From positions 167,065 to 231,064 of the forward strand of contig CANDNA010000001.1 in assembly GCA_947385955.1 (NCBI GenBank): a stretch of 64,000 bases of DNA. Reading direction: 5' to 3'. Below, piece by piece: positions 7,984 through 59,607 of the stretch. The notes under the pieces are model-generated. The model was not told the origin of the DNA and did no database searches. It saw only the letters and a program-made list of their open reading frames with translations. The position numbers and the translations under genes were made by a program. Numbering within the stretch: the stretch's first letter is position 1; every line of letters begins with the position of its first letter. The DNA comes from an uncultured Clostridia bacterium. GTDB taxonomy: Bacteria; Bacillota; Clostridia; Lachnospirales; Lachnospiraceae.

Positions 7984-8004
7984 ATCTGCCTCTTTTTATC
8001 ACTG

Positions 8005-11163: not shown

Positions 11164-11185
11164 AGTCTGCTCCTTTTGCCCGTCA

Positions 11186-11647: not shown

Positions 11648-11859
11648 CCCGGTTCCTTTCTACCTGTCAGGCTTTAAGTCAAAAATATTCTTTTCCTGTT
11701 TTTCTTTGGAGGGATTCACTCTTTTATGAATCTCAGAAATCTCATGGCACCACCTTCTCCGGCTTTTATGATCCAGTTCCATCACTTCCCTGTTGTCCCA
11801 GTGGAAATAATAAGCGATAAATGCCATTTCCTGATAAAGCTGCTGCTCCGGATAGAGTG

Positions 11860-12222
11860 TCAGCCCTCTTGTGTAAAATTTAGCGGCACATCATGGCTGT
11901 GCCCGCAGGACGGACACACCACCCGCATCACCGGCGGCTCGATATCATTGATCCGCTGGTACATATCCTGCAAAAACGCCAGATCCGCCGTAAACATTTT
12001 CTCCACTATGGAAGCCGTTACCACTTCCACACCTTCCAGCTCGGTGATTACTTTTGATAAAATCACCACCGACAGATAAGAAGGATTGCTCAGCACTCTC
12101 GGATCTCTCGTAGCGCTGATTTCATCCCCGGCCGTGGCAAGGCGCATCTTTCCCCGCCTGCTCACCTCTCCTGCCTGATTCACATAGCCTTTGGGCAGTT
12201 GAAAGTCAAAAATCGTTGTCAT
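11860..12222 (-). CDS. Small contractile-system-associated protein (120 aa) with a C-terminal CPSCGH zinc-ribbon-like motif. Function unknown.
   Basis: Conserved position between the two tube genes. VVCPSCGHSH motif at the C-terminus. No recognisable family. Confidence 0.4.
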   Translation of the reverse strand: MTTIFDFQLPKGYVNQAGEVSRRGKMRLATAGDEISATRDPRVLSNPSYLSVVILSKVITELEGVEVVTASIVEKMFTADLAFLQDMYQRINDIEPPVMRVVCPSCGHSHDVPLNFTQEG

Positions 12223-12238
12223 CTTTTTCTATTCCTTT

Positions 12239-12733
12239 TTAATTCGGTATCACCAATTCCTCATATGCAATCTCCACCGATTCAATGGCCACTTCGCTGG
12301 CAGTGGAATTTAAATCCGGCGCAGTGTATTTTGTCACCCAGGCATTGGTCAGAACCCATACTCTGGTACCGCTGATACTTGTTACCGGTGTGGAAGGCGC
12401 ACCTGCGTTAATATCAATCAATTCAATGGACACTTTGGAACGGGGCATCTCTCCCCTGGTTTCACTGACGCAGTCCTGTATCCATGTCTTGAAAGCATTG
12501 TCAATGGTATAGCCCATTTTCAGGGTAACATTCCCATGCTTGACAAGTCCCGGTACTTTCACCGGCGCCAGGCTGTGGGAATTGCCCTGACGGAACTCGA
12601 TCACATCCACCGAAGCCTCCACTCCGCTGACCTCGGTAAAAGCAGCCGTTCCGCTGACCGAATCCACTGTCACAAGGAAATTCATTTTTGTCAGGGGATA
12701 GAAAAGCCCCGATCCATTCTCATATGCTGCCAT
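12239..12733 (-). CDS. Contractile-system inner tube protein (T4 gp19 / Afp1-like), 164 aa
   Basis: Immediately downstream of the sheath gene. About 160 aa. MAAYENGSGLFYPLTKMNFLVTVDS... matches the 'phage tail protein' tube family typical of eCIS / T6SS-iv loci. Confidence 0.8.
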   Translation of the reverse strand: MAAYENGSGLFYPLTKMNFLVTVDSVSGTAAFTEVSGVEASVDVIEFRQGNSHSLAPVKVPGLVKHGNVTLKMGYTIDNAFKTWIQDCVSETRGEMPRSKVSIELIDINAGAPSTPVTSISGTRVWVLTNAWVTKYTAPDLNSTASEVAIESVEIAYEELVIPN

Positions 12734-12764
12734 AACTGTTCACTCCTTTTCTGCTTTGTGGGAC

Positions 12765-14462
12765 TTACCGGCCGGATGCCGACTCCGAGGTATACTGTGT
12801 CACCCTGAAAATTACAAATTCTGCCGGGCGCACCGGGGCAATGCCGATGTTGCAGATCAGCCGCCCGTTCCTGATATCATCCTGTGTCATCGTAGACGGA
12901 CCGATTTCCACAAAGAAACTTTCCTCCGGCGAGGCGCCTGCCAGCATACCGCTCCTCCACAGAGTTTCCAGAAAACCGCTGACAGTAAGACGCACTCTGG
13001 TCCACAGAGAAACATCATTCGGCTCAAATACCACCCAGCTTGTATTGGCCCGGATGCTTTCCTCCACATAGATAAAAAGCCTTCTTACATTGACATAGCG
13101 GAAGGTACTGTTACTGCCGACTGTCCGGGCGCCCCATACACGGATCCCCTGTCCCGGCAGCGCCCGGATCAGATTGATCCCTGCCGGATTCAGAATATCC
13201 TGCTCTTGTCTGGTAAAGGAAACCTTCAGACCGCTGCACAGCACCGTTTCATTGGCCGGCGCCTTATGTACACCTCTGGAACTGTCGGTTCTGGCATAGA
13301 CGCCCATCACCGCTCCGGAAGGGGGAAAATACCCATCCTTCTGTGTACAGCGGTCAAAACTCCGAAGCCAGGGATGATACATGGCTGCATAAGTACTGTC
13401 AATCATCTCCCTGTAGCGGAGCAGCTCTGCCGTATCACACATCTCTTCCGGCATATCCAGAACGGCAAAACGGCTGCCCGTCTTTTCACAGTGAGCCACT
13501 AAAGATACCATCACTTCCGCAGCGGTAACGCCGGGCACCGCCATCATACTCACCGTGTCATTTTCCAGAAATGACTGAATGCCTGTCCTCCTGCCGGCTC
13601 CCTCATCACGGCCGATAAAAGTACCGGCGTTTACCTGTTCTATACTGCCGTCGCTTCCACCTTCCAGCATAAAGGTCCCGGCAAAGATGTCCCCGCCCGA
13701 AACCGCGTCCGCAGGATTGTCCGCTCCGTCCTCTCTCTTCAGCGATACCCGGACCAGACGGCTCTTCTCCAGCCTGTTGCCTATATAATTGGGAGAAGCT
13801 ATATTAAAACTCAGATCACTGTAAATTTCCGTTTCGTCAAGATAACGGATCTGAAGTTCCGTTTCCGGAAGATACAGTACCCTCTCCGGTACCAGTCCTC
13901 CATCCACCACCTCTGTATCAAAAAGAGCTTCAAATGTGACATCATTGTCATAAATCGTCCGGATCCGGTTATACTTTCCGTCCACGGTAACAATATCCCC
14001 TTCTGCAAAACCGAAAATGGAACGTGCCCGATAAGTCCGCTCTCCTTTCTGCTCCATCAGCTGCAGTTTCTTTTTCAAAACAGTGGAAAAATTCATCTGG
14101 ATCCGATTTCCCCAGCTTCCTTCACTGGCTGCTTCCACCTGGAGGATATCGATTGTCGCACAGGCCTTTGCAGCGTCCTTTGGCGCTACCCGGCTCACAT
14201 AACAGCGTGTTCCCCCATTGGCAAAAAACTGCTCCACACTGCTGGCCAGATAACGGTATTCCCCATGCGTAAACTCACTCAAAGGACCGCCGAAAATCCG
14301 TAAAAATTCCGCATAGGACGGAACAAAAACCGGCGCCCCCGCTACAGGTCCCTTTACCGCCATCCCCACAAAACCGGCTGTGCTGGTTCCCACTCCCTCA
14401 ATTGTCCGGGGAGAATTGTCATACTCTTCCACATATACCCCCGGTGATAAATATTCTGCCAT
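12765..14462 (-). CDS. Contractile tail sheath protein, 565 aa
   Basis: The N-terminus MAEYLSPGVYVEEYDNSPRTIEGVGTSTAGFVGMAVKGP is the hallmark phage / eCIS sheath N-terminal motif. Size is about 560 aa. RBS present. Confidence 0.9.
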   Translation of the reverse strand: MAEYLSPGVYVEEYDNSPRTIEGVGTSTAGFVGMAVKGPVAGAPVFVPSYAEFLRIFGGPLSEFTHGEYRYLASSVEQFFANGGTRCYVSRVAPKDAAKACATIDILQVEAASEGSWGNRIQMNFSTVLKKKLQLMEQKGERTYRARSIFGFAEGDIVTVDGKYNRIRTIYDNDVTFEALFDTEVVDGGLVPERVLYLPETELQIRYLDETEIYSDLSFNIASPNYIGNRLEKSRLVRVSLKREDGADNPADAVSGGDIFAGTFMLEGGSDGSIEQVNAGTFIGRDEGAGRRTGIQSFLENDTVSMMAVPGVTAAEVMVSLVAHCEKTGSRFAVLDMPEEMCDTAELLRYREMIDSTYAAMYHPWLRSFDRCTQKDGYFPPSGAVMGVYARTDSSRGVHKAPANETVLCSGLKVSFTRQEQDILNPAGINLIRALPGQGIRVWGARTVGSNSTFRYVNVRRLFIYVEESIRANTSWVVFEPNDVSLWTRVRLTVSGFLETLWRSGMLAGASPEESFFVEIGPSTMTQDDIRNGRLICNIGIAPVRPAEFVIFRVTQYTSESASGR

Positions 14463-14889: not shown

Positions 14890-17484
14890 TCACGGACTGC
14901 TCTGTGTTCCATAATCCATCAATAAAGCCGTCAGTTCTTCCGATGCCGCAGTCACCTCTTCGTCGGCCAGTACTGCATAGCCGGTTCCGGGAATCACACA
15001 GGCCCGGCAGCCAAACTGCTCATACACATACTCCGGCGGCAAATACAAAACACCGGCATACCCGGCAGCCGCCTCCATTTCCTCAGTGCTCCCTCCGTTC
15101 CGGAATACCTGCTTCTGAAACGCAGTAAACTGATAATACACACTTCCTTTGGAAAGAATCACTGTTTTTCCTGTATCATGCCAGACATACCGATATCCCT
15201 TGCAGGCAGCCAGAGCCTGGCTGTTTACCAGCCCGTTTTTCTCTTCATACAGCCAGATCCCCTCCCGGCCCGCCAGAGAAGCAGCCAGAGCCCCGGCGCT
15301 CTCTGTCAGCGCTTCACTGCCCCAGGCATCGCCGCAGGCAGCCAGCGCTATGACTGCCGCCGTTTTTTCCTTTGGTGAAACCCCGGCAGCATCCGGGCCG
15401 TTTTCATTTTCCAGACTGCCGCCCAGCGCTTCCTCCAGAACAGATACGGCCTGCTCCGGCGTCAATGCCTCCTCCGGGGGATACGTCACCTCACTGCATA
15501 CGGCCACTGCCTCTTCGATCTTTTCCATGATTTCATCATACTCATTCTGTCCGCTCAGAAAACCGGCCTGGGCCATATCTTTATACACATCTTTCAATGC
15601 ATTCCCGGCCAGTGAAAAGCCGCCGCCAAGAGAGGCAATCAGCCCGTCCACACTGGCCTCCAGTTCCGACAGATGCTGCGCCCCGCTGCTTCGCAGCGCT
15701 TTTTGCGCATCGCTTTTCAGCCGTTCTATATTGGCAGCTTCGCTTCCGTCCGTTAACTGTGCGCTGGCAATGGCAATCTGTCCGTCCAGTGCGGCAATCC
15801 GGCTTCTGACTTCTGCCCCGCCACTGTCCTGTAACGCTTCCAGAGCTGCCTTTTCTTCATACAGCCGGTTCAGTCCGTCGGCCTGGGCCCTGGCTGCTTT
15901 CCGGATTTCCGCTTCCTTTGCCTCTATCCTGGCTTCCAGCCGTTTCGCCCTGTCCAGATCCAGGTCGTCCAGCGCTTCCAGCCGCTCTTCCTGCAGACTG
16001 GCTTTTTCCTCATACATGCGGTTTATCGGTATCTCCTCTGCTCCCGCCGTCATCCGGCTCAGCAGCATCTGCAGCCAGAGAAGATAACTGTCGGTGGATG
16101 CCTGCGCTGCCTGTTCATAAGCATCCCCAGGGACAGCGTCCAGAAAAGATGCCGCCTGCCTGATCCGCTCTCTGATATACTCCTGCGCTTCCTTATCTTC
16201 CATCCGGTCCACTGCCGCCTGAATATAAAACTGCAGTTCGTTCCGGGCCGTTTCATAAGCCGCCGTATCTTCTGCCATAATGTGTTCCAGTACCACGTGG
16301 GAAGCCTTTTCCTCCAGAGCTTCCTGATACCTCTGACTGATTCCCGGAGAAAGAGCCGACGCATATGCCGCATCCCCTGGCGGTATCAGCTCACTTTCCA
16401 GAAAAGCCAGTTCCCCGGCTGCATCACAGATTTCAGATTCCATAATATGCCCGAGCAGTATCAGATTCTGCACCTCCTCATCACAGGCGCTGTGATCCCC
16501 GGCCTGGGCATGTGATACCAGTGCCATTGCCAGACGGTATCTTACATTGTCCATCACCGTATCCCCCACGGCCAGCTCATTTCCCCGGGCCTGGTTCAAA
16601 GAGTCCATCAGATTCCGGCCGCTGTCCTGCATGGCTGTCAGCAGCGCCTGATCGAGCCGGAGAGGTTCGGATGTTTCCTCCTCTTCCCCTTCCGTATTCT
16701 TGCCGCCGCTCATTTCATCGCTCATCTCCTGTAAAGCGGCCGACAGACGTTCATACACCACCGCCCGCCTGCTGCAGTCCACCTTTCCCATGATTTCCTG
16801 TACCGTATCTTTTTCTTCCTGGGGCGCCCCGTTTTCGCACAATATCATATAATAGGACTGCAGCGCTTCCAACTGCTCATCATACTGCTGTGCCTCCCCG
16901 TCCTTCACATTGGTATCCTCAAAAAAACGCCGGATCCGATCCAGATTCCGTTTCATCTCCCGATCCGGGTCCGACCGGGAAAGCAGGTCATACTGCAGCT
17001 TCAAAGGCTCCAGCTCCGGCAGTGCGTCAATCTCATAAAGAGGCCGGATGGCAAACACCGACACAGCCTGCCCCGTACGCAGATCATAGGTAATGCCGTC
17101 CGCTCCTGTCCGATGGGTCAGAAACAGCGCTCCTATCTCCTCATTGTCCGCCATAATGCCCGTTTCCATCAGATCCGAAAGGGAAGCCGCATCCGTAATG
17201 TCCATCCACCTGCCGTCGGCCAGCTCCGATTTATAGTACCGGTTCCTCTGATTTGCATTGGATGCAGACGTTTCCGCAATCTGATACAGTTCATCCGTCA
17301 GTGCATGAAGATGGATCAGATGGGTCCCGATGATCAGCATGGAATCCTCTTCTGCCGCCGGGTCGATATGTACGCCGCTTTCTTCAAAAACAGCCTCCGT
17401 CGTCAGAAAAGTCCGCCAGATAAACACAGCCGCCAGGGCTCCCATCAGACTGCCTATGATATACTTTGCCGGTTTTCCTTTCAT
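14890..17484 (-). CDS. Membrane-anchored (single N-terminal TM) coiled-coil protein, 864 aa. Function unknown.
   Basis: Hydrophobic helix YIIGSLMGALAAVFIWRTFL at the N-terminus. Long Ala/Glu/Leu-rich segments with a heptad character. No Walker motifs. AGAGGA RBS. Co-oriented and tightly spaced with the sheath gene. Confidence 0.6.
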   Translation of the reverse strand: MKGKPAKYIIGSLMGALAAVFIWRTFLTTEAVFEESGVHIDPAAEEDSMLIIGTHLIHLHALTDELYQIAETSASNANQRNRYYKSELADGRWMDITDAASLSDLMETGIMADNEEIGALFLTHRTGADGITYDLRTGQAVSVFAIRPLYEIDALPELEPLKLQYDLLSRSDPDREMKRNLDRIRRFFEDTNVKDGEAQQYDEQLEALQSYYMILCENGAPQEEKDTVQEIMGKVDCSRRAVVYERLSAALQEMSDEMSGGKNTEGEEEETSEPLRLDQALLTAMQDSGRNLMDSLNQARGNELAVGDTVMDNVRYRLAMALVSHAQAGDHSACDEEVQNLILLGHIMESEICDAAGELAFLESELIPPGDAAYASALSPGISQRYQEALEEKASHVVLEHIMAEDTAAYETARNELQFYIQAAVDRMEDKEAQEYIRERIRQAASFLDAVPGDAYEQAAQASTDSYLLWLQMLLSRMTAGAEEIPINRMYEEKASLQEERLEALDDLDLDRAKRLEARIEAKEAEIRKAARAQADGLNRLYEEKAALEALQDSGGAEVRSRIAALDGQIAIASAQLTDGSEAANIERLKSDAQKALRSSGAQHLSELEASVDGLIASLGGGFSLAGNALKDVYKDMAQAGFLSGQNEYDEIMEKIEEAVAVCSEVTYPPEEALTPEQAVSVLEEALGGSLENENGPDAAGVSPKEKTAAVIALAACGDAWGSEALTESAGALAASLAGREGIWLYEEKNGLVNSQALAACKGYRYVWHDTGKTVILSKGSVYYQFTAFQKQVFRNGGSTEEMEAAAGYAGVLYLPPEYVYEQFGCRACVIPGTGYAVLADEEVTAASEELTALLMDYGTQSSP

Positions 17485-48314: not shown

Positions 48315-50909
48315 TTATTTCAGGTATTTTTTCAGCTTGCAGACAACAGCCTGAATGTCAATCGGTTTTGCCAGATGGTCATTCATGCCGCACTCAAGAC
48401 ACTTTTGAATATCTTCCGAAAAAGCATCTGCCGTCATTGCAATAACAGGAATATCTGCATCCTCACGCTCCAGCGCCCGAATGGCCCTGGTCGCTTCGTA
48501 GCCGTTCATCACCGGCATTCTCACATCCATAATAATAGCATCATAATAGCCAACAGGGGACTTCTCAAACTTTTCAACACAGCTCTGCCCGTTTTCCACC
48601 CAATCCAATTCCATCTCAAGAACGGAAAGCAGTTCTCTGGCAACTTCCCAGTTAAGCTCATTATCCTCTGCCATCAGGATATGTTTCCCTCTGCATTCCA
48701 GGCCGATCTCTTCTTCCCCACCGGCGCCTTTTTTATCCGAAACACCGGCAAATACTTTAAGGGCATCCAACAAAGCGGACTGAAACACAGGTCTGCAGAC
48801 AAACCCTGAAATCCCGGCCTCTCGTGCCGCCTTTTCCATACTGCTCCAGTCACAGGCCGAGAGGAACAGCGCCGGACTGTCTTTTCCATAACTCGATTGA
48901 ATTTTCCTCGCCGCCTCAATTCCGTTCATCCCCGGCAAGTTCCAGCTTAAAAGGATTATCTGATAAGCATCATTGCCATGACAGTGTTCAGCAATCAGTT
49001 CCATTGCACGCTCAACACTCAGACACCATTCAGAACGAATCCCCAGCGACTGTAAGGAATGGACTGTGCTGCTGCACAGGCGCTCATCGTTATCGACGAC
49101 AAGCATATGCCAGTCCGGCAGTACTGTATCCATCTCCTGCTCTGCCACTTTTGCCAGGTCAAGAATAACATGAAACTCGCTCCCCTTTCCCTGCTCACTG
49201 CGGACAGAAATGGTGCCGCCCATCGCATCTACAATATACTTGGTAATCGCCATTCCCAGCCCGGACCCTTCGGTTTTCTGTACGCGTGTGTTGTCCTCTC
49301 TGCTGAAGGAGTCAAATATTTTCTCCTGGTATTCCTTCGACATACCAATGCCTGTATCTCTCACCAGGAAATGGGTACGGACACAGGAAGGATCTTTCGG
49401 CAATGGTTCCTGATATACAGACACTTTAACAGAACCATTCTCCGGTGTAAATTTAACGGCGTTCCCCAACAGGTTAATCAATACCTGGTTCAGCCGTACA
49501 CTGTCACAGCACACATCCTCCGAAAGAATTTCATAAGCAACTGCATCAAACTGCTGATTTTTCGCCTTAACCTGGGGCTGTATGATATTGACAATGCTGT
49601 CCATTACTTCCTTTAATGACACCAGCCCCACATTCAGCGTCATTTTGCCGCTTTCGATCTTTGATATATCCAGTACATCATTGATCAGTCCCAGCAAATG
49701 CTTACTGGACAGCGCAATTTTCCGCAGATATTCCTGAACCTGTTCCGGCTTATGCACATTGGCTGCGGCCAGGGACGTCATACCGATTATGGCGTTCATA
49801 GGAGTCCGTATATCATGGCTCATGCTGGAGAGAAATTCCTGTTTGGCCGCATTGGCATGTTCTGCTTCTTTCCGCGCCTCTTCAGCGGCTTTCCGTGCCG
49901 TATCCATTTCTGTGTTCATATCCTTCAATGCAGATACCTGGTTTCGGAATATTCTCAAATACCGGAAAAACAGGTAAAGAAGCATGACAATTACCAGAGA
50001 AGAAGCGATATAAACAAGAGTAAGCCACCGATTTCCCATACCTGAAATCGCCTGATCCAGCCCTTCAAAAGGAAGGATCGTCACCAGATACCATTCGCAG
50101 TAGGGGAGGCTGGTACAATACAGATGACAGCGCGATTCTTCGCTTTTCAGTATAACAGTATAATCTTCATTCGTATTCATGGCATCTGTCATCTGTTTCA
50201 CATAGGAATCCGCTTTATCACCCTGACCGTCAAAGATTTTATACAGTCGGTTAAAATAATTTTCGTTTTTGTCATTCTGATCCCCCACAACATAAGTGCC
50301 ATCCTCGCGTATAACAAAGGAATACATCTGTGAACTGTCAGACTCAAGGAAGAGGACCTCTCCCATATAATTGGCAGAAAGCCCTACCACAATGGCAAGG
50401 CTCCCGCTTCCATCTGACATAGGATATTCACAGGGGATCCCAAACAAAATTACCCCGTTCCCATTGTTGTCTACCGCAGATGCGACTTTGCGTTCCCCGT
50501 TTTTCAGACTTTCCAAAAACGTTTCAGGGTGATTCAGCTTCACTGTATCCCCGTAAATCATTTCGATCCTGCCGTCTGACGAATACAGGGCAGCGCATAA
50601 AAAATGCCTTGCCCTCGCACCGTATTCAATCTCCTCCTTCGAACCATAGCCCAAATCCCCCTCACCTGCCGCAATATGCGCTATGGATTCCGCCATTGTC
50701 AGGCGGAGCTCAATAACCGTTTCAAAATGTAAAGATACCTGCTCATTCATTCCGGCCATATAATCATTGCCTATATCTTCAATCGTATTTTCACACATAT
50801 CGTTAATGGATCTTCCAAGAAAGAAAAACACGAAACTCGTTAAACAAATGATTACTGCTATGTTAATTTTTAAGGAACGCAGCAAAGGCATGTTTTTCAT
50901 ATTTTTCAT
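48315..50909 (-). CDS. Hybrid sensor histidine kinase: periplasmic sensor domain between two TM helices, HisKA, HATPase_c, two receiver domains (864 aa)
   Basis: H-box SSMSHDIRTPMNAIIGM. N/G boxes LLGNAVKFT, DTGIGM, GSGLGM. REC1 LLVVDNDE...LLSWNLPGMNG. REC2 ILMAEDNELN...IIMDVRMPVMNG. Confidence 0.8.
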   Translation of the reverse strand: MKNMKNMPLLRSLKINIAVIICLTSFVFFFLGRSINDMCENTIEDIGNDYMAGMNEQVSLHFETVIELRLTMAESIAHIAAGEGDLGYGSKEEIEYGARARHFLCAALYSSDGRIEMIYGDTVKLNHPETFLESLKNGERKVASAVDNNGNGVILFGIPCEYPMSDGSGSLAIVVGLSANYMGEVLFLESDSSQMYSFVIREDGTYVVGDQNDKNENYFNRLYKIFDGQGDKADSYVKQMTDAMNTNEDYTVILKSEESRCHLYCTSLPYCEWYLVTILPFEGLDQAISGMGNRWLTLVYIASSLVIVMLLYLFFRYLRIFRNQVSALKDMNTEMDTARKAAEEARKEAEHANAAKQEFLSSMSHDIRTPMNAIIGMTSLAAANVHKPEQVQEYLRKIALSSKHLLGLINDVLDISKIESGKMTLNVGLVSLKEVMDSIVNIIQPQVKAKNQQFDAVAYEILSEDVCCDSVRLNQVLINLLGNAVKFTPENGSVKVSVYQEPLPKDPSCVRTHFLVRDTGIGMSKEYQEKIFDSFSREDNTRVQKTEGSGLGMAITKYIVDAMGGTISVRSEQGKGSEFHVILDLAKVAEQEMDTVLPDWHMLVVDNDERLCSSTVHSLQSLGIRSEWCLSVERAMELIAEHCHGNDAYQIILLSWNLPGMNGIEAARKIQSSYGKDSPALFLSACDWSSMEKAAREAGISGFVCRPVFQSALLDALKVFAGVSDKKGAGGEEEIGLECRGKHILMAEDNELNWEVARELLSVLEMELDWVENGQSCVEKFEKSPVGYYDAIIMDVRMPVMNGYEATRAIRALEREDADIPVIAMTADAFSEDIQKCLECGMNDHLAKPIDIQAVVCKLKKYLK

Positions 50910-50975
50910 CTCCTCTGTTTTTAATTTATTACCTGAGTCTGAACTCCGGCCACTGTCCGTTTCACGTTTTTACCA

Positions 50976-53579
50976 TCACCTCAGCCGGCTCATGACCCTG
51001 AACATTGTGGGGATGTCTACCGGCTTTGCCAGATGTTCATTCATCCCGGCGTCTTTAGCCAGGGCAATGTCCTCTTCAAATGTGTTTGCCGACAGCGCTA
51101 TGACAGGCACTGTTTTCGCATCTGTCCGTTCCAGACTGCGAATCACCCGGGTTGCCTCATATCCGCTCATAACCGGCATCATCAAATCCATAAGCACACA
51201 GTCGAAAGTGCCCGGAGCAGATGCCTCGAACGCGTCCACAGCAGCTTTGCCATCATTGGCGGTCACAACCTCCGCACCTGCCTCCTGAAGAATATACTCT
51301 ACGATTTCACAGTTAATCTCATTATCCTCCACCAAAAGAACACGCATTCCGGCAATGCTGTCCTGCATATCCTGCTCCTCTTTTGCAGGATCTCCGCTCC
51401 ATGCCTCATCGACCCGAAGAGGCAGCATGATTTGAACCACACTTCCTCTGCCAGGACAACTGTCTATCCTGATGCTTCCCTTCATCTCGTCCACCAGCTT
51501 TTTTACAATGGACATGCCAAGGCCCACGCCATTATAATTGGTTCTCGCATCCTGATGTTCCTGTGTAAAAGGCTCAAAAATGTGCTCCTTAAATTCTTCT
51601 CCGATGCCGATTCCAGTATCTTCGATCTCAAACCCGTAATCTGCAATCCCGTCCTGGCAGGCGTTTTCCCTTACCCGGACAAATACGGAACCATGAGGCC
51701 TGTTATATTTAAGAGCGTTGTCAATAACATTCATCAGGATTTTCTTTAAGTGCAGCGTATTTCCTATCAATCTGCCATGCCGTAAGCTGACCTCCTCCAG
51801 CACCAGCCGGACTCCCCTCTCCTCTGCCTGGGAAGAAAGGATCGAAATACAGTCCTCCACGGTATCCTGAAGAGCAAAAGGCTCTTCTACTGCCGACGGT
51901 CTCCCACTCTCCAGTCTGCTGACCTGCAGAACGTCGTTCACCAGAGAAAGCAGATGCTCCGTTGACACGCGGATTTTCTTATAACAGTCTCTCTGCCGCT
52001 CCGGATCATCCTGACTTTTTTCCAGGATAGATAACATTCCCATAATCCCATTGATGGGTGTACGAAGGTCATGAGACATATGGGAAAGAAATTCACTCTT
52101 TACCGAATTTGCTCTCCTTACCCTCTCCAATAACTCCAGAATGGACTGCTCCTGTTTCTTCCTTGTCATCATGGTTTCCGTGATGTCCTGATGGTATCCG
52201 CTCAGGCAGACACCCGGTTTTTTGAAAGTCTTGTCCGGCACTCCACCACATCGGACATAAATTTTACCCAGTTTTGGATGATTCCAAAGGTAAATCACCT
52301 CAGAACGCCCTGTTTCCAGTATCTCCAGAACCGCCTCCTGCACCATTTCCACATAGTCCGGCTCAATATTTTCAAACCAGCTTTGGTAACACGCCTCCGG
52401 ATCGATCTCATCCGGTACGCCCAGAAGAATCCGCATTGTACGGTCCGCATACATTCTTGGTTTACAGCCTTCCTCCAGTTCTATCGTCCAGATGCCTGTC
52501 CTGGCTCCTTCCAGAATATCCTCCAGGCTTTGCCGTGCCTCCAGCTTATGCTTCTCCTCCTGCTCCACCACGGCATTGACATCCCGCTGGGCAAAAATTG
52601 CGCAATTCTCCTCCTCGGTCTTTTCCGTAGCGGAAAAATGAAGTTCCATATGTTTCAGTCCGAATGAACTGTCTTTTACCTGATATCTGACAGAAATCTT
52701 TTTCTTTGTCTTAAGCTGAGCGAGCACATAGTCTTTTTTTGTCACAGCACGGAGCCGGTCCTGATCCTGTGGGACCACATACCGGAAAATATACTGCTCT
52801 ATAGCTGCCTGATAACCCTCCTTAAAATGAAAGGCCCAATCCATACCTGTCCATTCGCTGTGCCGATAAATCTCACATTCGCCTGTGTCAAAGTTCACCT
52901 GATAGATGCCCAGATAATCCACACTGAGAGCATGGAGAACGTTATAACTGCGATTTTGAAGTTTCCGGAACAGATTACGGCGTTTCAGCGAGGATACGAT
53001 AAAATATGCTGCGGTCTGCAGCATATTTGATGCGTATTCCAACGTTCTCACAGGAGGATTATCCACACCATAAAAACCGATGATTTTTTTGCCGTCATAA
53101 AGGGGTACCACCACAAGAGAATAAATGCCCTGCCGCTTCAGGTTCTCATACTGAAGCGGGTCAGACTCACGGATATCTTCCAGATTCTCAATAACAATAT
53201 GCCTGCCGATACTGAACTTCCGGTACCAGCCCGCGCATACCTCTGAAGGGACATTTTGAAGATTCTCCTTTTCCGGCACAACCCCCTCGGCTGTCCACTC
53301 ATAGGTATTATCATCGCCGCCGGATCTGTTCTGCTCGAATATGTAAGTCCGCTCCCCATTCAGCGCCTTGCCCAGATGCTCCAATAACACCTCCAACGAC
53401 TGATCCGGGGTTTCCTCCAGTAATGCAACACGAAGGCCCTCATTAATAATGGCTTCCAGATTCTGAACACTCCGCATACCACTATGCTGCGCACAGCTTC
53501 CGGCGGCTGGCACACCTTCACCACCCCATTCAAAAAGTCCACCTGAATACCCCATAAGACTGTCCTCCATACAGGCCAT
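50976..53579 (-). CDS. Cytoplasmic hybrid sensor histidine kinase: GAF, PAS-like, HisKA, HATPase_c, receiver (867 aa)
   Basis: H-box LSHMSHDLRTPINGIMGM. N/G boxes VIDNALKYN, DTGIGI, GVGLGM. REC VLLVEDNEIN...VLMDLMMPVMSG. N-terminal GAF-like region. Confidence 0.8.
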   Translation of the reverse strand: MACMEDSLMGYSGGLFEWGGEGVPAAGSCAQHSGMRSVQNLEAIINEGLRVALLEETPDQSLEVLLEHLGKALNGERTYIFEQNRSGGDDNTYEWTAEGVVPEKENLQNVPSEVCAGWYRKFSIGRHIVIENLEDIRESDPLQYENLKRQGIYSLVVVPLYDGKKIIGFYGVDNPPVRTLEYASNMLQTAAYFIVSSLKRRNLFRKLQNRSYNVLHALSVDYLGIYQVNFDTGECEIYRHSEWTGMDWAFHFKEGYQAAIEQYIFRYVVPQDQDRLRAVTKKDYVLAQLKTKKKISVRYQVKDSSFGLKHMELHFSATEKTEEENCAIFAQRDVNAVVEQEEKHKLEARQSLEDILEGARTGIWTIELEEGCKPRMYADRTMRILLGVPDEIDPEACYQSWFENIEPDYVEMVQEAVLEILETGRSEVIYLWNHPKLGKIYVRCGGVPDKTFKKPGVCLSGYHQDITETMMTRKKQEQSILELLERVRRANSVKSEFLSHMSHDLRTPINGIMGMLSILEKSQDDPERQRDCYKKIRVSTEHLLSLVNDVLQVSRLESGRPSAVEEPFALQDTVEDCISILSSQAEERGVRLVLEEVSLRHGRLIGNTLHLKKILMNVIDNALKYNRPHGSVFVRVRENACQDGIADYGFEIEDTGIGIGEEFKEHIFEPFTQEHQDARTNYNGVGLGMSIVKKLVDEMKGSIRIDSCPGRGSVVQIMLPLRVDEAWSGDPAKEEQDMQDSIAGMRVLLVEDNEINCEIVEYILQEAGAEVVTANDGKAAVDAFEASAPGTFDCVLMDLMMPVMSGYEATRVIRSLERTDAKTVPVIALSANTFEEDIALAKDAGMNEHLAKPVDIPTMFRVMSRLR

Positions 53580-54359
53580 TTTCCGGCCATAGTATCACAA
53601 CAAATTCCCGCGCCGGGATATTTCTTACCCCAAATCCCGATTGCAGAATATTCATATCATTTCGCTATATTTTTACAACTTTACCATAAAAATCCGGAAA
53701 GTCTGTGTCATAATATCATACGCATAAAATGACGTCAATATAAAATACAAACCCTTCCCCTCTTTTAAATACCAATTACACAAACCAGCGTCTGTTTTCA
53801 ATCAGGTAACATTCTTTTCACATATACCTCAAAGGATTGTTCTGTCAAATATTACCCGCAACAGAATGCGGAAAAAAGGAAGCCTTTTATAAAATTTCTC
53901 AAAAACTTTTCCAGATATCTTAAAAGTATGCCATTGCCCTTAGAACTCCTTTGCCCTGTCTTTTACTTTTCAGTAAATGGCATTCCAACATAAGAACGGT
54001 CTGACATTTTTTGCTCTCACAATAATTAAGCCAGGATAAGAATGGCTGTAATGCAGACCTTCCATAATGTTTTGCACCACAATTACTTTATTTTTTCCCA
54101 TCCTTCTTCTCCCGTATGGCACTGATTAATCTTATTACTCATGTAGAAGTATACCATACTGTCTTTACCTTTTCAATTAATTACGAACATAAGTTCTGTT
54201 TTTATTTTAAAAATTCCATGTTATTTATGAATTATTATTCGTTTTAGCCCTGCCAAATGTTTATATAAAATCCAAACAATATATAATAAGCACTTTATTC
54301 GACAATATATATGTCAAAACAAAGTGCTTATTCCCCCAAAATCTACTCCTTTCTATCCC
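53580..54359. other. ~780-bp AT-rich (~30% GC) non-coding stretch with no ORF >60 aa, left of the island's direct repeat. Contains the hairpin AATAAGCACTTTATT-N21-AACAAAGTGCTTATT (54283-54330).
   Basis: GC content drops relative to the ~58% flanks. The ORF track is empty here. The inverted repeat was read directly from the sequence. Confidence 0.5.
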
Positions 54360-54395
54360 GGCAGACTCCCCTCCACACACAACGACCCATACCCC
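54360..54395. repeat. Left 36-bp direct repeat (GGCAGACTCCCCTCCACACACAACGACCCATACCCC), a duplicated copy of the subtilase gene 3' end (attL-like)
   Basis: Identical 36/36 to 57863-57898. Its reverse complement encodes GYGSLCVEGSLP, the C-terminus of the S8 peptidase. Confidence 0.85.
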
Positions 54396-54575
54396 GCGTG
54401 TGTCAAGTTAATGTCACAAACTTTTTTCACTTTTTTTGAACGAAAATCGCTGAAACCCGCATAACTTCATGGGGCGTATGGTTCGCTAATGCTAAGTCAG
54501 GGCAAAATTGACGGTGAATTAGAGTCAAGTCGCTTTTATTTGTAAGCCACTGCTATTCCTTGCCATTAGGATATT

Positions 54576-55229
54576 TTATACTAATAATTCTCCAAAGCAT
54601 TGCATTAATTCTTTACTTTCCCTTACTATACTTCTTTTAAATCCGGCAAAACTACTTTCTCTACTTAACATTTTTTTAATTCTTTCCCAATATAGCGTTC
54701 GCAATTTGTTATCACTTTCATTGAAATAGTTCTCAATATATTCTGTAAATTCTTTTATTTCCTCAGAAATTTTGCTTTTTAAATTTCTCGCCTCAAATTC
54801 TGAGATTGCTGTTCCTGCACCATTATATATTTTATCCAATAATTCACGTGTTTCACTATTTTCAGCGCTGTATGATCTATCATCCTTCACTTCAACATAA
54901 TGTTTCGGATAACTGTCAAATATGATATGTATATACTTTTCCGGATCATCCTTTGTACAATCAATAATATGATCATATTGACTTCCTTTAATTCTATTAC
55001 AGTGCGCACAAGCATAAAAAAGATTGTCCCAATTATATTTTAAGTAGTCATTATTTTTACATGAGCGAAAATGTTCTACATTAATAACTGTTGGATTTTT
55101 TTCTTCACAAAGATAACACTTATTATAAAAATCCTTCTGTAATATAAAAATAATTTTCTCGCTCCGATAGTCTTCTTCTTTCTTAATAACTGTTCCTATC
55201 GGGAGTAACGACTTGTCTATTTTAACCAT
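54576..55229 (-). CDS. HNH endonuclease of the restriction/defence-associated type (TIGR02646-like, PtuB-like), 217 aa
   Basis: CYLCEEK...VEHFRSCKNNDYLKYNWDNLFYACAHCNRIKG carries the C-x2-C ... H ... N ... H/C HNH core. The start overlaps the upstream ATPase stop by 8 nt. Confidence 0.65.
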   Translation of the reverse strand: MVKIDKSLLPIGTVIKKEEDYRSEKIIFILQKDFYNKCYLCEEKNPTVINVEHFRSCKNNDYLKYNWDNLFYACAHCNRIKGSQYDHIIDCTKDDPEKYIHIIFDSYPKHYVEVKDDRSYSAENSETRELLDKIYNGAGTAISEFEARNLKSKISEEIKEFTEYIENYFNESDNKLRTLYWERIKKMLSRESSFAGFKRSIVRESKELMQCFGELLV

Positions 55230-56370
55230 TCTGTCTTTCTCTTTCCATTCTTTTAAAGTCTAATATAATATCCTTTGCCATAAAAACAGGAATTGATTTA
55301 AAATATTTAATCAATTCAGCTAACTTTTCATTTTCAATCTCATTTCGAGAATCTCCTTTTTCAACAAGTTCAACATACCCTCTATATTTCTCATTCATTA
55401 CATTTGAGTACATACTTGTATCAAAAAGAGAATTTACCAAACAGTCATAGGAATATTCTGATAAATTTTCTACCTGAATATTCTTCTCCAGATCATAAAC
55501 CACCGCCGACTCTATTGATGACACAACAAACGGAGAATGTGTTGCTACAATAAATTGCAAATTAGGGAAAATCTTTATTAAAAAAGGAAGAACCCTTTTT
55601 TGCCAGGAAATATGCAAATGTAATTCTATCTCATCTATTAAAACGATACCTGGTAAATCATATTTTAAATGAGCCTGATGTTCCATCCGTATTACTATTT
55701 CAGAAAAAATATGAAAAAGAGCTTCATAACCGCTTGCCATTTCATCCAAGCAAAACACTTCTCTATCTGGTAATTTAATCTTGAAACACATATCTTCCAA
55801 TGATAAGTCGAGTCGCAACTGCATATTTTCAAATAATTCTCTTAAGGCATTTTGTAGCCAATCAAACCACCTTTCAATATCTTCAACTCTTTCTTTTTCC
55901 CCTTTTTCCTTTGCTATCAATTTTTCAAAATATAAATATATCAACAACTGTCCAAATAAATAATTCATTTTTTCTGTAGGCATCTTTACTGCACTTATAT
56001 CTACAACCTCAACTGCCCTTGATTTACTTATTTCAAACTTTCTATCAGAAGGAAAATATATCTGCACAAACTCTCCCTTTTCATACAATTGATACATTTC
56101 TTTACCATCAATATCTTTTGATAAACTATTACATATTTTTAGTTTATCTGAAGAAATGCCAAAATCAAATTGTCTCCATGTTGAACCGGCAAATCCCCAC
56201 TCATGAATCCCTATTTGACTGCTAATTGCATTAAGCAATGTTGTTTTTCCACATCCATTAACTCCCGTAAGTATTAAGTGTTTCAACTTATCTCTGGATA
56301 ATTTTATTTTAATATTCTTCAAGTGCCTCACTTGCAAAACATCTATCTCTGTTAAAAATATATGTTCCAC
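55222..56370 (-). CDS. ABC/SMC-type ATPase (AAA_21/AAA_15-like, PtuA/AriA/OLD N-terminal class), 382 aa
   Basis: Walker A GVNGCGKTT. Q-loop / signature-like MASGYEALF. Walker B IVLIDEIELHLH. H-loop ATHSPF. Confidence 0.75.
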   Translation of the reverse strand: MEHIFLTEIDVLQVRHLKNIKIKLSRDKLKHLILTGVNGCGKTTLLNAISSQIGIHEWGFAGSTWRQFDFGISSDKLKICNSLSKDIDGKEMYQLYEKGEFVQIYFPSDRKFEISKSRAVEVVDISAVKMPTEKMNYLFGQLLIYLYFEKLIAKEKGEKERVEDIERWFDWLQNALRELFENMQLRLDLSLEDMCFKIKLPDREVFCLDEMASGYEALFHIFSEIVIRMEHQAHLKYDLPGIVLIDEIELHLHISWQKRVLPFLIKIFPNLQFIVATHSPFVVSSIESAVVYDLEKNIQVENLSEYSYDCLVNSLFDTSMYSNVMNEKYRGYVELVEKGDSRNEIENEKLAELIKYFKSIPVFMAKDIILDFKRMERERQNG

Positions 56371-56431
56371 TCTGACCTACTTCTTTGATTCCAATCTTCA
56401 TTATCTTAATTTACATATAATAAGCCAAAAG

Positions 56432-57733
56432 CTATAAAGTTTCTTCTTCAATTACCCATTGTCCGTTTTTCTTAGAACCTATTCTTTTTATAATGCCCTT
56501 TTCTCTTAAAGTACGAATATGTTTTGTAACCGTCGTCACTCCAACTCCTATTTGTCTACTAATTTCATGTACTGTAATATTACTGTTCGCTTTCATCCGG
56601 CTTAATATTTTCTTATCACATTCATTCAATACAATCCTCTTCTTCTTTTGTAAATCTCTTTCCACTACTTTACCTTTGTTTAATGGAATTGTTACTGTAA
56701 TAAAATTCTCTGTAATATCAAATACTTCTTTTCCATATTTAGATACAATTAAAGGCACGCCATGCCCTGTCTGCTCTATATAATCCAACTGAACCATAAT
56801 CTGCTGGAGTTCAAGATTCACAGGTTTACTTTTCCCCTCATAAAATTCCTCCAGTGTAAGTCCCTCTGGTAATCCTCCCACCGATATAACCTCAATGCGA
56901 TCTTCAAACATATACACGGCTGGCGGTGTCTGTCTTGACCAACGATTGTGCAAACAAGCATTTAACCATGCCTCTCTAAAGCATGGAAAATCAAACAGTT
57001 TGCTCTCCTTTCTAAGGCTGCCACCTACATCCACTATGGTATCATTTAGCGCTTCCATATAGTCTAACACCTGCTTTACAGCTACAAGTATACATTTATA
57101 ACCGTATTCATTCCTCCTAATCAAATCTGTCTTATCTGTGCCACGAAATACCGCAACTTTAATAGAATAACTATTAATATCTGCCAGAATAGCCGCCATT
57201 AAATTGTAAGTTCCGTCACGTGTCAAAAGATTTAAGTTCTGCTTAAACGTATTTTCCCGAAGCGTAAGATTATTTCCGGCATATAACATCTTAAGTTGCT
57301 CAAAACTTAACTCTTGATTATTCGCTTCAATATTTACGATAGAATCTGATACGCTAAGCATCAGATTGCGTAACTGCTGTGGCGATATTTCCCTGTCCTC
57401 GTCCGCCGATCTCATATAATACTTTCCATATGCCGAATAAGGTTTTTCATCTCCTTCTACAGTAACTCTAATTACATTTTTATCATCACATAGTTCCATA
57501 ATAATTGTCGGAATAACTTGTGGTTTAATCGCATTCGCAATTCCCTGAGATATTTCACGTAATGTACGATCACCAATTTGCTGGCCTAAAATTTCACCAT
57601 CATTTCTTACTCCAAAATACAATGTACCTTTTCCATTTTTATTTAACATAGAAGCCAATGAAATAACGCCTTCCTTCAATTCTCCAGTCGTTTTTTTAAA
57701 CTCTATCAGCTCTGTTTCCATACCGAAATTCAT
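56432..57733 (-). CDS. AlbA_2 (Schlafen-like 'divergent AAA') domain protein with HATPase_c_4-like middle region and C-terminal winged HTH, 433 aa
   Basis: N-terminus LIEFKKTTGELKEGVISLASMLNKNGKGTLYFGVRNDGEILG is the classic AlbA_2 motif. C-terminal HTH NITVHEISRQIGVGVTTVTKHIRTLREKGII. Confidence 0.65.
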   Translation of the reverse strand: MNFGMETELIEFKKTTGELKEGVISLASMLNKNGKGTLYFGVRNDGEILGQQIGDRTLREISQGIANAIKPQVIPTIIMELCDDKNVIRVTVEGDEKPYSAYGKYYMRSADEDREISPQQLRNLMLSVSDSIVNIEANNQELSFEQLKMLYAGNNLTLRENTFKQNLNLLTRDGTYNLMAAILADINSYSIKVAVFRGTDKTDLIRRNEYGYKCILVAVKQVLDYMEALNDTIVDVGGSLRKESKLFDFPCFREAWLNACLHNRWSRQTPPAVYMFEDRIEVISVGGLPEGLTLEEFYEGKSKPVNLELQQIMVQLDYIEQTGHGVPLIVSKYGKEVFDITENFITVTIPLNKGKVVERDLQKKKRIVLNECDKKILSRMKANSNITVHEISRQIGVGVTTVTKHIRTLREKGIIKRIGSKKNGQWVIEEETL

Positions 57734-57855
57734 AATATCACTCCTTCCATATTTATTATATCCTTTTTTATTATTTTAATCAACACTTATTAGACACTTT
57801 ATTCAGCGCCTATGTGATAAATAAAGTGTCTATTAACTCAAAAAACCACTCCATT

Positions 57856-59607
57856 CTACCTTGGCAGACTCCCCTCCACACACAACGACCCATACCCCAC
57901 CATCTCATTCGGAAATTCCGCAAACCCCGGCAGTGCTTTCGCACCCTTCTGCAGATATGCCTTCACTTTCTGTCCATACAGGTATGCATCATTTCCCTTC
58001 ACGATGCCCCATTCCATCAGCAGGGAAGAAGCGCCGGTTACGAACGGCGTCGCAAAGGAAGTGCCCGTTACTGCTTCCCGTCCGCCGCCTGCCGCTGCCG
58101 TTACGATTCCCACGCCCGGTGCCGCCAGGTCCGGTTTGCTCTGTATGATTCCCAGCCGTTCTCCCGCATCCGCCGCAAAGAAATATCCCCTGCCGGAAAA
58201 GTCTGCATAGGCCAGATCGGTTGTACGATAGGCGCCTACGGTAATGGCCCTGGAAGCTGTGGACGGAATGGTCAGCGTGGTATCCGGTGTGGCCCGGTAA
58301 AACCCGGTGCTCTCCCCGATGGCTGCCTGGCTGGGAAGGTACATGCTGAAATTGCCCGTCACGATACGGACCGGCTCCAGTGTAAAAGACCAGATTCCAC
58401 TGCTTACATATCTGTCCATCGGCAGGAAATCCAGATAAATCTCCTGCTGGGAGGAATATGGTACGGGCTCGCCGATATACAAAAGCACCTCTGTCCCTTC
58501 CATCGGAATACGGCGCATCCGTTCCCCGCCCGGATCATCCGTGGAAAATAAAGTGCTCCGTCCTCCCGGCGATGTCAGTGTGATGCGGAAAGTATCCGCA
58601 TAGTTTTTCCAGAGCTGTACACTGAATGCACTCTCGTAGCTTCCCACAGCCAGCTCCACCTTTGTGGACTCCAGCGCATTGCCTGCCATATGTCCTCTGG
58701 CCGCCCCTTCATTTCCGCTTCCCACACAGATCACACACCTGCCCACCTCAGATGCATTGTCCAGAAAGCGTTCCAGAAGGGAAGTCCCGTCATGGGAGCC
58801 ATAAGTATTGCCGAAACTGATGTTAATTGCTATGGGTTTTTGGAGAAGCAGCGCCTTTTTCACCAGATAGGTAACGGCCCGCATCAGTTCTGTAGTTCGG
58901 GGAAAAGAATCTCTGGCCGGTGTTCCCAGCCTGATGATCAGCAGTTCACTTTCCGGGGCCACCCCTTCTTTCCCCGCCGCAATACCGGCCACTGCCGTTC
59001 CATGCCCGCTGATATCCCGCACCGGCAGGCTTCTTTCCACAGCACCGTTTTCCTCCTCTGCCAGAGCGGTATTGATCTGCTCTGCAGTAAATTCCACTCC
59101 CGTCAGGAATCCTTCCGGCGGTTCCCATCCCTTCTCTGCATCCGGCACAAGGCTCTGATCCCAGATGGCCGCGATCTTCGTACTCCCGTCCGCATTCCTG
59201 AAATCCGGATGACGGTAGTCGATTCCCGAATCCGCAATACCGATCAACACCCCTCTGCCGCTCAGATAAGGAGGCCGTATGGTAACAGGCAGGATACAGG
59301 ATGCCTGCTTCCCTGCAAATACCTGAAAATACAGCCGTTTCGGCTTTTCCACATATTCAATCTCTTCTATTTCTGACAGAATTGCCATTTGGCTCTCCGG
59401 TACTGTCAGGATGGCATACCCTGCCAGCAACGGTTCCACCACGATGGAAAGCTCTTCCAAAAAAAGGAGGTCACCGTGATATTTCACGATGACCTCCCAG
59501 GTCCTGTCCTGCGGATCAAATCCAACCTCCAGGATTCCCGATTTTTCCCGTTCCTCCGGCGTTGCTTCCAGCGCCGCATTCAACAACAGTTCTAACTTTT
59601 CCGACAT
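57856..59607 (-). CDS. Subtilisin-like serine peptidase S8, Csp-type (germination-protease-like) architecture, 583 aa
   Basis: Catalytic Ser motif GTSFATPFVTGASSLL. His motif HGTAVAGIAAG. Asp region GIADSGIDYRHPDF. N-terminal WEVIVKYHGDL-type prodomain as in Csp proteases. The last 12 codons lie in the island's right direct repeat. Confidence 0.75.
   Translation of the reverse strand: MSEKLELLLNAALEATPEEREKSGILEVGFDPQDRTWEVIVKYHGDLLFLEELSIVVEPLLAGYAILTVPESQMAILSEIEEIEYVEKPKRLYFQVFAGKQASCILPVTIRPPYLSGRGVLIGIADSGIDYRHPDFRNADGSTKIAAIWDQSLVPDAEKGWEPPEGFLTGVEFTAEQINTALAEEENGAVERSLPVRDISGHGTAVAGIAAGKEGVAPESELLIIRLGTPARDSFPRTTELMRAVTYLVKKALLLQKPIAINISFGNTYGSHDGTSLLERFLDNASEVGRCVICVGSGNEGAARGHMAGNALESTKVELAVGSYESAFSVQLWKNYADTFRITLTSPGGRSTLFSTDDPGGERMRRIPMEGTEVLLYIGEPVPYSSQQEIYLDFLPMDRYVSSGIWSFTLEPVRIVTGNFSMYLPSQAAIGESTGFYRATPDTTLTIPSTASRAITVGAYRTTDLAYADFSGRGYFFAADAGERLGIIQSKPDLAAPGVGIVTAAAGGGREAVTGTSFATPFVTGASSLLMEWGIVKGNDAYLYGQKVKAYLQKGAKALPGFAEFPNEMVGYGSLCVEGSLPR
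57863..57898. repeat. Right 36-bp direct repeat (attR-like), forming the true 3' end of the S8 peptidase gene
   Basis: Identical 36/36 to 54360-54395. Confidence 0.85.

Follow-up and report, generated by a model that had tools for sequence, protein, structure and literature searches.

A probable stand-alone Septu gene pair on a recombinase-less cassette at the 3' end of a peptidase gene in a Lachnospiraceae genome

We analysed a stretch of 64,000 nucleotides (nt) from an uncultured Clostridia bacterium of the family Lachnospiraceae (GenBank assembly GCA_947385955.1, contig CANDNA010000001.1, positions 167,065 to 231,064), below called the window. Two overlapping genes on its minus strand very probably constitute an ordinary stand-alone (type I) Septu anti-phage system, with the ATPase PtuA and the HNH nuclease PtuB, residing on a cassette that has no recombinase genes. 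The closest relatives of the host are among mouse-gut and Acetatifactor-like metagenome-assembled genomes. The gene pair is laid out as follows (aa, amino acids):

55222-56370, minus strand: ptuA, a 382-aa ABC-type (AAA_15/AAA_21) ATPase; GTG start directly after an in-frame TAG
54576-55229, minus strand: ptuB, a 217-aa HNH nuclease; ATG start
55222-55229, minus strand: overlap of ptuA and ptuB, 8 nt, ATGGTTAA, read directly

A preliminary description, made from the sequence alone, had placed open reading frames (ORFs) of 382 and 217 aa at these positions and called the pair Septu/PtuAB-like. Both frames are present in the ORF list as placed, on the minus strand. The motifs quoted for the ATPase are all found in PtuA: the Walker A motif GVNGCGKTT at residues 36-44, the Walker B motif IVLIDEIELHLH at residues 242-253, and the H-loop ATHSPF at residues 276-281. 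The key residues are G36-T43 of Walker A, the signature-like S213-G214-Y215, D246-E247 of Walker B, the D-loop E249-x-H251-L252-H253, and H278 of the H-loop. They are followed by a C-terminal helical extension (approximately residues 300-382). In the alignment of homologues, Walker A (G36-x-N-G-x-G-K42-T43), [S/D]-G214-Y215, D246-E247, E-x-H-L-H and H278 are invariant down to 37% identity. The N-terminus set by the GTG start matches the N-terminus of all homologues aligned.

Both proteins match the PADLOC PtuA1 and PtuB1 hidden Markov models strongly and at full length. PADLOC is used here at the level of model scores of single proteins. The best model for the ATPase is PtuA PDLC00268 (411 positions, E=6.6e-93), and that for the HNH protein is PtuB PDLC00331 (E=1.3e-55, residues 1-215 aligned with positions 1-218 of 222). 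The next 20 or more matches are likewise PtuA and PtuB models, more than 20 of them PtuA models following the best one for the ATPase. In Pfam, PtuA matches AAA_21 (7e-16) and AAA_15 (2e-11), both over the gathering score.

The solved structures give the same picture: comparisons of sequence and of fold returned PtuA and PtuB and no competing family, AriA scoring far lower. Among the PDB sequences, PtuA is closest to PtuA of retrons Ec78 and Ec83 (about 1e-17), followed by the E. coli Septu chain 8ee4 (3e-13) and AriA (2e-7). The AlphaFold2 model of PtuA has a pLDDT of 79.8, and the best 50 Foldseek matches to it in the PDB are all PtuA, from Septu (8ee4, 8eea, 8sux) and from retrons. The E. 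coli Septu structures are the entries 8EE4, 8EE7, 8EEA and 8SUX. The preliminary description had named an McrBC-like or transport family as the outcome that would speak against Septu; no Toprim/OLD or McrBC-type match was seen among the sequence and fold comparisons.

PtuA is about 80 aa shorter than its counterpart in E. coli Septu (382 against 465 aa), chiefly due to a shorter insertion after Walker A. The alignment of homologues attributes its shortness to this insertion, which is short and variable, and to the lack of an N-terminal extension. The suggestion of a compact or divergent variant, made earlier on the grounds of length, is unneeded: relatives of PtuA with 368-433 aa number more than 1,600, and proteins of this size form a large known subfamily with the 411-position PADLOC model of its own. 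The pair is already recognised by existing defence-annotation models and is not a new variant.

The second protein contains the HNH motifs quoted for it, CYLC...EHF...NWDNLFYACAHCN. Its N-terminal beta-beta-alpha-Me/zinc-finger HNH domain includes C38, C41, E52-H53, N69, C74, C77 and N78, and is followed by a helical C-terminal domain (approximately residues 120-217). Residues C38, C41, E52, H53, W67, N69, C74, C77, N78 and K81 are invariant or nearly so in an alignment reaching down to 31% identity. The catalytic residues, whose absence had been named as a ground for rejection, are thus present and conserved, and by this alignment PtuB carries a complete zinc-finger HNH active site. The zinc finger is of the form CxxC...CxxC with HCN, whereas the solved retron-type PtuB chains have no second CxxC in the aligned region.

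A single-sequence phmmer search of the PDB with PtuB gave spurious matches only (protein A repeats), PtuB itself appearing at E=0.94. A profile of the family built from 20 members matched the solved PtuB chains over the HNH core (E from 5e-4 to 3e-3), and matched no other nuclease family in the PDB. The AlphaFold2 model of PtuB has a pLDDT of 93.3 and a pTM of 0.88. Its best 10 Foldseek matches in the PDB are all PtuB, including that of stand-alone E. coli Septu (8eea_G), at full length and with TM scores of 0.55-0.63; the next match follows at E=0.76.

The two genes are consistently found together. The ATG of ptuB lies 8 nt ahead of the end of the ptuA stop codon, and in all homologous loci inspected (L001-L011) ptuA is followed by a 216-aa partner with an overlap of 8 or 17 nt. 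This conserved overlap suggests translational coupling, as had been proposed. The overlapping pair of 382 and 216 aa recurs across many Clostridia, its surroundings being mobile or defence regions of various kinds. Its neighbours are a relaxase, TnpV and ParB in L001 and a type I restriction-modification system in L003; in L004-L007, where PtuAB is 66% identical, they are three serine recombinases and an adenosine-deaminase protein. In L008-L011 the pair lies in the same cassette as in the window. The closest database relatives of PtuA (93% identity) and PtuB (97% identity) have E-values of 2e-234 and 4e-137, which places the pair far beyond chance. The ratio of nonsynonymous to synonymous divergence (dN/dS), computed against four homologues, amounts to 0.13-0.21 in ptuA and 0.12-0.29 in ptuB, dS reaching 1.4 across the two genes, which indicates that purifying selection maintains both.

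The adenosine-deaminase-domain proteins encoded downstream of PtuAB in L004-L007 are large: in L004 a protein of 849 aa is preceded by one of 729 aa (8208-12959), and the protein of L005 has 598 aa (7818-9614). They may be RADAR-like and belong to the same element-bounded cassette as PtuAB.

Doron et al. reportedly described type I (stand-alone) Septu systems of Bacillus in 2018. The pair in the window resembles type I Septu in being a two-gene operon of an ABC ATPase followed by an HNH nuclease with a helical C-terminal domain, in possessing all catalytic motifs, in the full-length match of both folds, in having no retron, and in its location on a mobile or defence island. The cassette contains three ORFs only, and the third gene has no reverse transcriptase (RT) domain by Pfam. 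No Rfam family was found at E<=1 in the 4.6 kb searched (53400-58000), hence no match to a noncoding RNA (ncRNA). Since the cassette shows neither an RT nor an ncRNA match, the pair was assigned to type I and not to the retron-linked type II.

Some observations weigh against this assignment, or against extending it to function. Identity to structurally characterised PtuA and PtuB is just 13-19%, and at such a distance stoichiometry, ATP regulation and substrate may differ. The signature-motif position, occupied by Gln in retron PtuA and by Leu in PtuA of E. coli Septu (PMC12819146), is an invariant Tyr here, and the ATPase behaviour of characterised PtuA cannot be read across. The Pfam HNH score of PtuB is 17.7 bits, below the curated cut-off, and the NCBIfam models, both built on retron Ec78, also score under their cut-offs (119.8 against 500 bits for PtuA, 16.3 against 150 bits for PtuB). 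Given the agreement between the PADLOC subfamily models and the structures, we treated these scores as the behaviour of branch-specific models, representing the retron/E. coli branch, rather than as evidence against membership.

The third gene of the cassette lies upstream of ptuA, and promoter-like sites precede both:

56432-57733, minus strand: AlbA_2/HTH gene, 433 aa, with Schlafen AlbA_2, HATPase_c_4 and winged helix-turn-helix (HTH) domains; a COG2865-type putative regulator
57755-57783, minus strand: promoter-like site TTGATT-17-TATAAT upstream of the AlbA_2/HTH gene; 10/12 in a consensus scan, a pattern match only
56400-56428, minus strand: promoter-like site TTGGCT-17-GATAAT in the 61-nt gap upstream of ptuA; weaker, 9/12, a pattern match only

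The 433-aa protein matches the Pfam families SLFN_AlbA_2 (1.8e-15), HATPase_c_4 (2.5e-13) and HTH_24 (1.7e-10), and phrog_12156 over its full length (1e-76). The gene accompanies PtuAB only in the approximately 91%-identical cassette copies of L008-L011. It was considered as a conserved third component and rejected by comparison with L003, L001 and the other PtuAB contexts; it is probably co-cargo, not a component of Septu.

The reading closest to the preferred one is a three-gene system, in which the AlbA_2/HATPase_c_4/winged-HTH protein would be an integral sensor or a transcriptional regulator of PtuAB. The three genes are indeed co-oriented, no terminator-like site was seen in a scan of the 61-nt gap between the AlbA_2 gene and ptuA, the trio travels together at about 91% nt identity in L008-L011, and a protein with AlbA_2 and HATPase_c_4 domains also adjoins PtuAB in L003 (7814-9316). 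However, the latter shares nearly no sequence with the protein of the window and is encoded on the opposite side of the pair, whereas PtuAB homologues at 66-82% identity (L001, L002, L004-L007) have no such neighbour at all. The synonymous divergence from L008 is about three times higher for the AlbA_2 gene (dS 0.48) than for ptuAB (0.16-0.18), which suggests a separate history and hints at a mosaic cassette. Given also that the AlbA_2 protein has no match to PADLOC defence models except for its HTH, and that the characterised Septu functions with two genes (PMC13096335), a three-gene system is unlikely. Somewhat less probable still is that the pair is chiefly an addiction or stabilisation module, akin to toxin-antitoxin systems, that keeps the mobile cassette in place rather than defending against phages. 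The pair does belong to a small mobile cassette, its counterparts in other genomes are carried by elements with a relaxase or recombinases, and free PtuAB of retron-Eco7 is toxic when expressed (PMC12640716). On the other hand, Septu Ec-B88, a stand-alone E. coli system of two genes, protects from phages in a manner dependent on its ATPase and HNH motifs (PMC13096335), and the cargo of the same chromosomal site in relatives (CBASS, AbiL, SIR2, STAND-type) bears the signature of a defence hotspot. One role does not preclude the other.

Homology to retrons raises another alternative, namely that PtuA and PtuB are the effectors of a retron type I-A (type II Septu) system from which the RT and ncRNA have been lost, or in which they are encoded elsewhere. 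The effectors of Retron-Eco7/Ec78 and Retron-Eco4/Ec83 are homologous to the pair, retron PtuA and PtuB chains are among its best sequence and fold matches in the PDB and the best-scoring of the solved structures, and the sole NCBIfam PtuA model, matched at E=1.5e-34, is the retron one. However, the retron models of PADLOC score far below those of Septu (ATPase_I-A, 3e-36 against 7e-93; HNH_I-A, 1.5e-6 against 1e-55), and neither an RT gene nor an Rfam match to a retron is present in the cassette, nor an RT in any of the homologous loci examined. Retron PtuA, at 542-552 aa, binds the RT and the multicopy single-stranded DNA (msDNA) through an N-terminal extension and a helical flap (PMC12819146), which a protein of 382 aa is too small to accommodate. 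Because PtuA is too short to contain these parts and no RT or msr/msd is found, its control must be retron-independent here, and we consider a retron origin of the pair very improbable. Even less credit can be given to membership in a different family of ABC ATPases with nucleases (PARIS AriAB, Gabija, OLD, AbiL) or to a type IV restriction enzyme. PARIS (AriA/AriB), Gabija (GajA) and OLD share with PtuA the AAA_15/AAA_21 core, common in such systems, as well as a D-loop of the DExxLHP type and a role in defence, and there are weak matches to AriA (2e-7), mREase_IV (1.4e-4) and a restriction-associated AAA ATPase (3e-4). But the nuclease of these systems is a Toprim domain, fused or on AriB, and neither protein of the window has a Toprim match in Pfam or PADLOC; the nuclease here is a separate HNH protein with the helical C-terminal domain specific to PtuB. 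The similarity to AriA is confined to the region of Walker B and the H-loop, and the PtuA and PtuB models are ahead of all others by tens of orders of magnitude.

For the Septu pair, a mechanism can be proposed by homology with the characterised E. coli systems. Stand-alone E. coli PtuAB is a 6:2 assembly of PtuA and PtuB in which ATP inhibits the nuclease (Li et al. 2024, cited in PMC12640716 and PMC12819146). The helical C-terminal domain of PtuB is sandwiched by a pair of PtuA C-terminal extensions (PMC12819146), and other PtuAB pairs nick plasmid DNA or cut single-stranded DNA (PMC12640716). By analogy, PtuA of the window would oligomerise via its ATPase domains, and pairs of its C-terminal extensions would clamp the helical domain of PtuB, yielding a complex of both proteins, which in E. 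coli Septu has a 6:2 ratio. PtuA with bound nucleotide would hold the nuclease silent. Infection, through a phage-derived cue, ATP depletion, or both, would free the activity of PtuB against nucleic acid, and both the infected cell and phage replication would be arrested (abortive infection). According to the alignments and models, the parts that this scheme needs are present in the proteins of the window, namely an ATPase core, helical C-terminal regions and an HNH site. The stoichiometry of the complex, its trigger, its substrate and the phenotype in the Lachnospiraceae host are inferred.

The preliminary description had also placed the pair on a horizontally acquired island. The low-GC patch is real, with GC content of 31-38% over approximately 53600-57800 against about 46-54% on the flanks, in a genome of approximately 50% GC. 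It can be described more specifically as a 3.5-kb recombinase-less cassette with att-like repeats, located at a recurrent defence hotspot. The cassette follows the S8 peptidase gene of the host and is delimited by these features:

57856-59607, minus strand: S8 peptidase gene of the host, 583 aa; its 3' end is the insertion target; Pfam Peptidase_S8 was matched by the L008 homologue
57841-57898, minus strand: repeat D1a, the last 14 peptidase codons, the stop codon and 15 nt; left cassette junction
57787-57836, minus strand: hairpin_a, an AT-rich 17-bp inverted repeat (I3), 94% complementary, terminator-like, after the peptidase stop
54396-54530, minus strand: 135-nt cassette-end element ('elem140') with three ACTTGACA-YTAATTYACC-like direct motifs; candidate att arm
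54338-54395, minus strand: repeat D1b, a second copy of the peptidase 3' end, encoding GYGSLCVEGSLPG*; right cassette junction
54285-54332, minus strand: hairpin_b, the other copy of hairpin_a, also terminator-like; inverted repeat I5 (93% complementary)
54066-54284, minus strand: remnant of a KilA-N cassette, with the leader and the first 19 codons (54122-54066) of a truncated KilA-N gene (PADLOC PDC-S22)

Read along the minus strand, the order is the peptidase gene, D1a, hairpin_a, the AlbA_2 gene, ptuA, ptuB, the 135-nt element, D1b, hairpin_b and the KilA-N remnant. D1a and D1b form a 58-nt direct repeat, 90% identical, with a spacing of 3503 nt, and the two hairpins are paralogous (I5/I6, D4). 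The remnant is 89-90% identical at the nucleotide level to the start of the KilA-N cassettes in L017 and L038, and in tblastn 19 of 19 aa are identical; the L017 KilA-N protein matches PDC-S22 at 1.4e-119. Behind the remnant there are approximately 470 nt of AT-rich DNA (53600-54065), in which no ORF or homologue was found, and then the next host gene. The copies of the cassette in L008-L011 are 91% identical to it at the nucleotide level from 57838 to approximately 54423. In L008 the cassette follows an S8 peptidase gene whose DNA cannot be aligned with that of the window.

Immediately past the cassette site, on its downstream side, the minus strand (48315-53579) encodes two large hybrid sensor histidine kinases of 864 and 867 aa. 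Judged from sequence, they have HisKA/HATPase domains and receiver-like C-termini. A homologue of one of them lies upstream of the peptidase in L018, whereas those of the window lie downstream, and thus the synteny of the hotspot is not fixed.

The window has one copy of the 135-nt element. When 21 copies are aligned, a sharp left border appears at ACTTGACA, and conservation continues into CGGGGTATGGGG; the copies from sites other than the peptidase diverge past this point. At the junctions, the shared core CGGGGTATGGGG is followed by the 3' codons of the peptidase. In at least 13 peptidase loci, copies of the element with 68-97% identity terminate cassettes whose cargo differs. In every recombinase-bearing copy found, it is located directly downstream of three tandem large serine-recombinase genes; these copies are those of L004-L007, that of L087 and all four exact matches from IMG/VR. 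Its positions are approximately 4659-4791 in L004-L007, approximately 9788-9931 in L005 and L006, and 16764-16898 in L087; it is also found in L092-L095. Triple serine recombinases are known from integrative and conjugative elements of Streptococcus (PMC4701971). The element is probably an att arm of a family of elements with triple serine recombinases.

L087 is an isolate genome in which the element, 95% identical to the copy of the window, lies at the peptidase site. There the recombinase-bearing element interrupts the peptidase at GGGGCTTATGGT (9740-9800, 16880-16960). Its left end carries TAGTGTCAAGT after the core, which is the inverted complement of the right-end motif ACTTGACACTA. Put together, the two ends would reconstruct a dyad-symmetric attP-like site, as expected of the attP of a serine recombinase. 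The small recombinase-less cassettes have no left half-site of the L087 type.

A tblastn search found no serine recombinase gene in the cassette or in the rest of the 64-kb window. Since the cassette-end element elsewhere follows the triple serine-recombinase module, the cassette was most likely delivered by such recombinases acting in trans, and it may be re-mobilised by them in the same way. A simple attP x attB integration of each cassette was considered; the left ends of the small cassettes resemble host sequence, consisting of the remainder of the peptidase 3' end and the hairpin, and have no inverted ACTTGACA half-site. An RNA function of the element was also considered. It has no Rfam match at E<=1, no tRNA or tmRNA is present in the window, and the link to recombinases is the simpler reading.

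The peptidase site is occupied in other genomes as well. There are 80 homologous peptidase loci in genomes of Lachnospiraceae. At least one cassette follows the peptidase in 13 of 55 related loci with at least 3 kb of downstream sequence, each ending in the 135-nt element and the peptidase 3' end. Docked cassettes were noted in L017, L028, L031, L045, L047, L049, L054, L057, L066, L072, L078, L087 and L092. The cassette ends carry approximately the last 13 codons of the peptidase, and the internal junctions also contain a terminator-like hairpin. The main ORFs of the cassettes are all co-oriented with the peptidase. Contigs end within 600 nt of the peptidase stop in 14 of 79 cases. A clean empty site was sought in the closest relatives; contigs L012, L013, L014 and L016 end 115-470 nt past the peptidase stop.

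The cargo at the site comprises Septu, CBASS, AbiL, SIR2/Thoeris-like proteins, KilA-N with STAND, and PD-(D/E)xK candidates. L017 has a KilA-N protein (PDC-S22) together with a STAND-like NTPase of 1,339 aa, whereas L047 has KilA-N (PDC-S22) without the STAND partner, and also a SIR2-type protein. A ThsA-like SIR2/STALD protein and PDC-S02 are found in L028, AbiLi/AbiLii and a CBASS system (cyclase, E2, 4TM effector) in L066, a SIR2-type protein in L072, and PDC-M03A in L049 and L057. Several large ORFs have no PADLOC match at E<=1e-5: L078 10105-13179 (1,024 aa), L047 13002-15860 (952 aa) and 9965-11398 (477 aa), L057 12798-14333 (511 aa), and L031 7650-8567 (305 aa). By location, these are candidate uncharacterised defence genes.

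These observations may point to a previously undescribed system of gut Lachnospiraceae, in which defence cassettes, arranged in tandem, co-oriented and for the most part devoid of recombinases, would dock at the 3' end of the conserved S8 peptidase gene and be shuffled in trans by a module of three large serine recombinases. We give this interpretation an even chance. Its closest described parallel is in staphylococci, where tandem defence cassettes of the staphylococcal cassette chromosome (SCC) type are inserted at rlmH and mobilised in trans by Ccr serine recombinases (PMC11470126). As in SCC and pseudo-SCC elements (PMC11470126), the cassettes lie at the 3' end of a conserved gene, this end is repeated, the cassettes form tandem arrays enriched in defence cargo, and some of them have no recombinases while related elements have large serine recombinases. 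Unlike SCC, the target is an S8 peptidase gene, the recombinases are a triple module instead of CcrAB or CcrC, the end element is long (135 nt, with three direct motifs), and the cassettes are much smaller (1.3-7.6 kb); the host belongs to Lachnospiraceae. Compared with an integron array, the array adjoins an S8 peptidase gene instead of an integrase gene, and its end motifs are direct, not inverted; no search was aimed at IntI or attC.

The pair adds one Septu locus, from an under-studied lineage of gut Firmicutes, to an already recognised system, and in this respect little changes. However, all of the Septu mechanism rests on E. coli proteins, which are 13-19% identical to this clade. With its signature Tyr and full zinc-finger HNH, the clade could be used to test the generality of ATP inhibition and of tRNA-Tyr targeting. 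Of greater interest than the pair is its island, and the cassette and hotspot context is the sole part that might repay further work. If confirmed, the hotspot would explain the movement of small defence operons between gut commensals, and the peptidase 3' end together with the 135-nt element would be a simple anchor for mining new defence genes. The proposed cassette system, if real, would amount to a 'defence library' of an SCC-like or integron-like kind in a host other than staphylococci and Vibrio.

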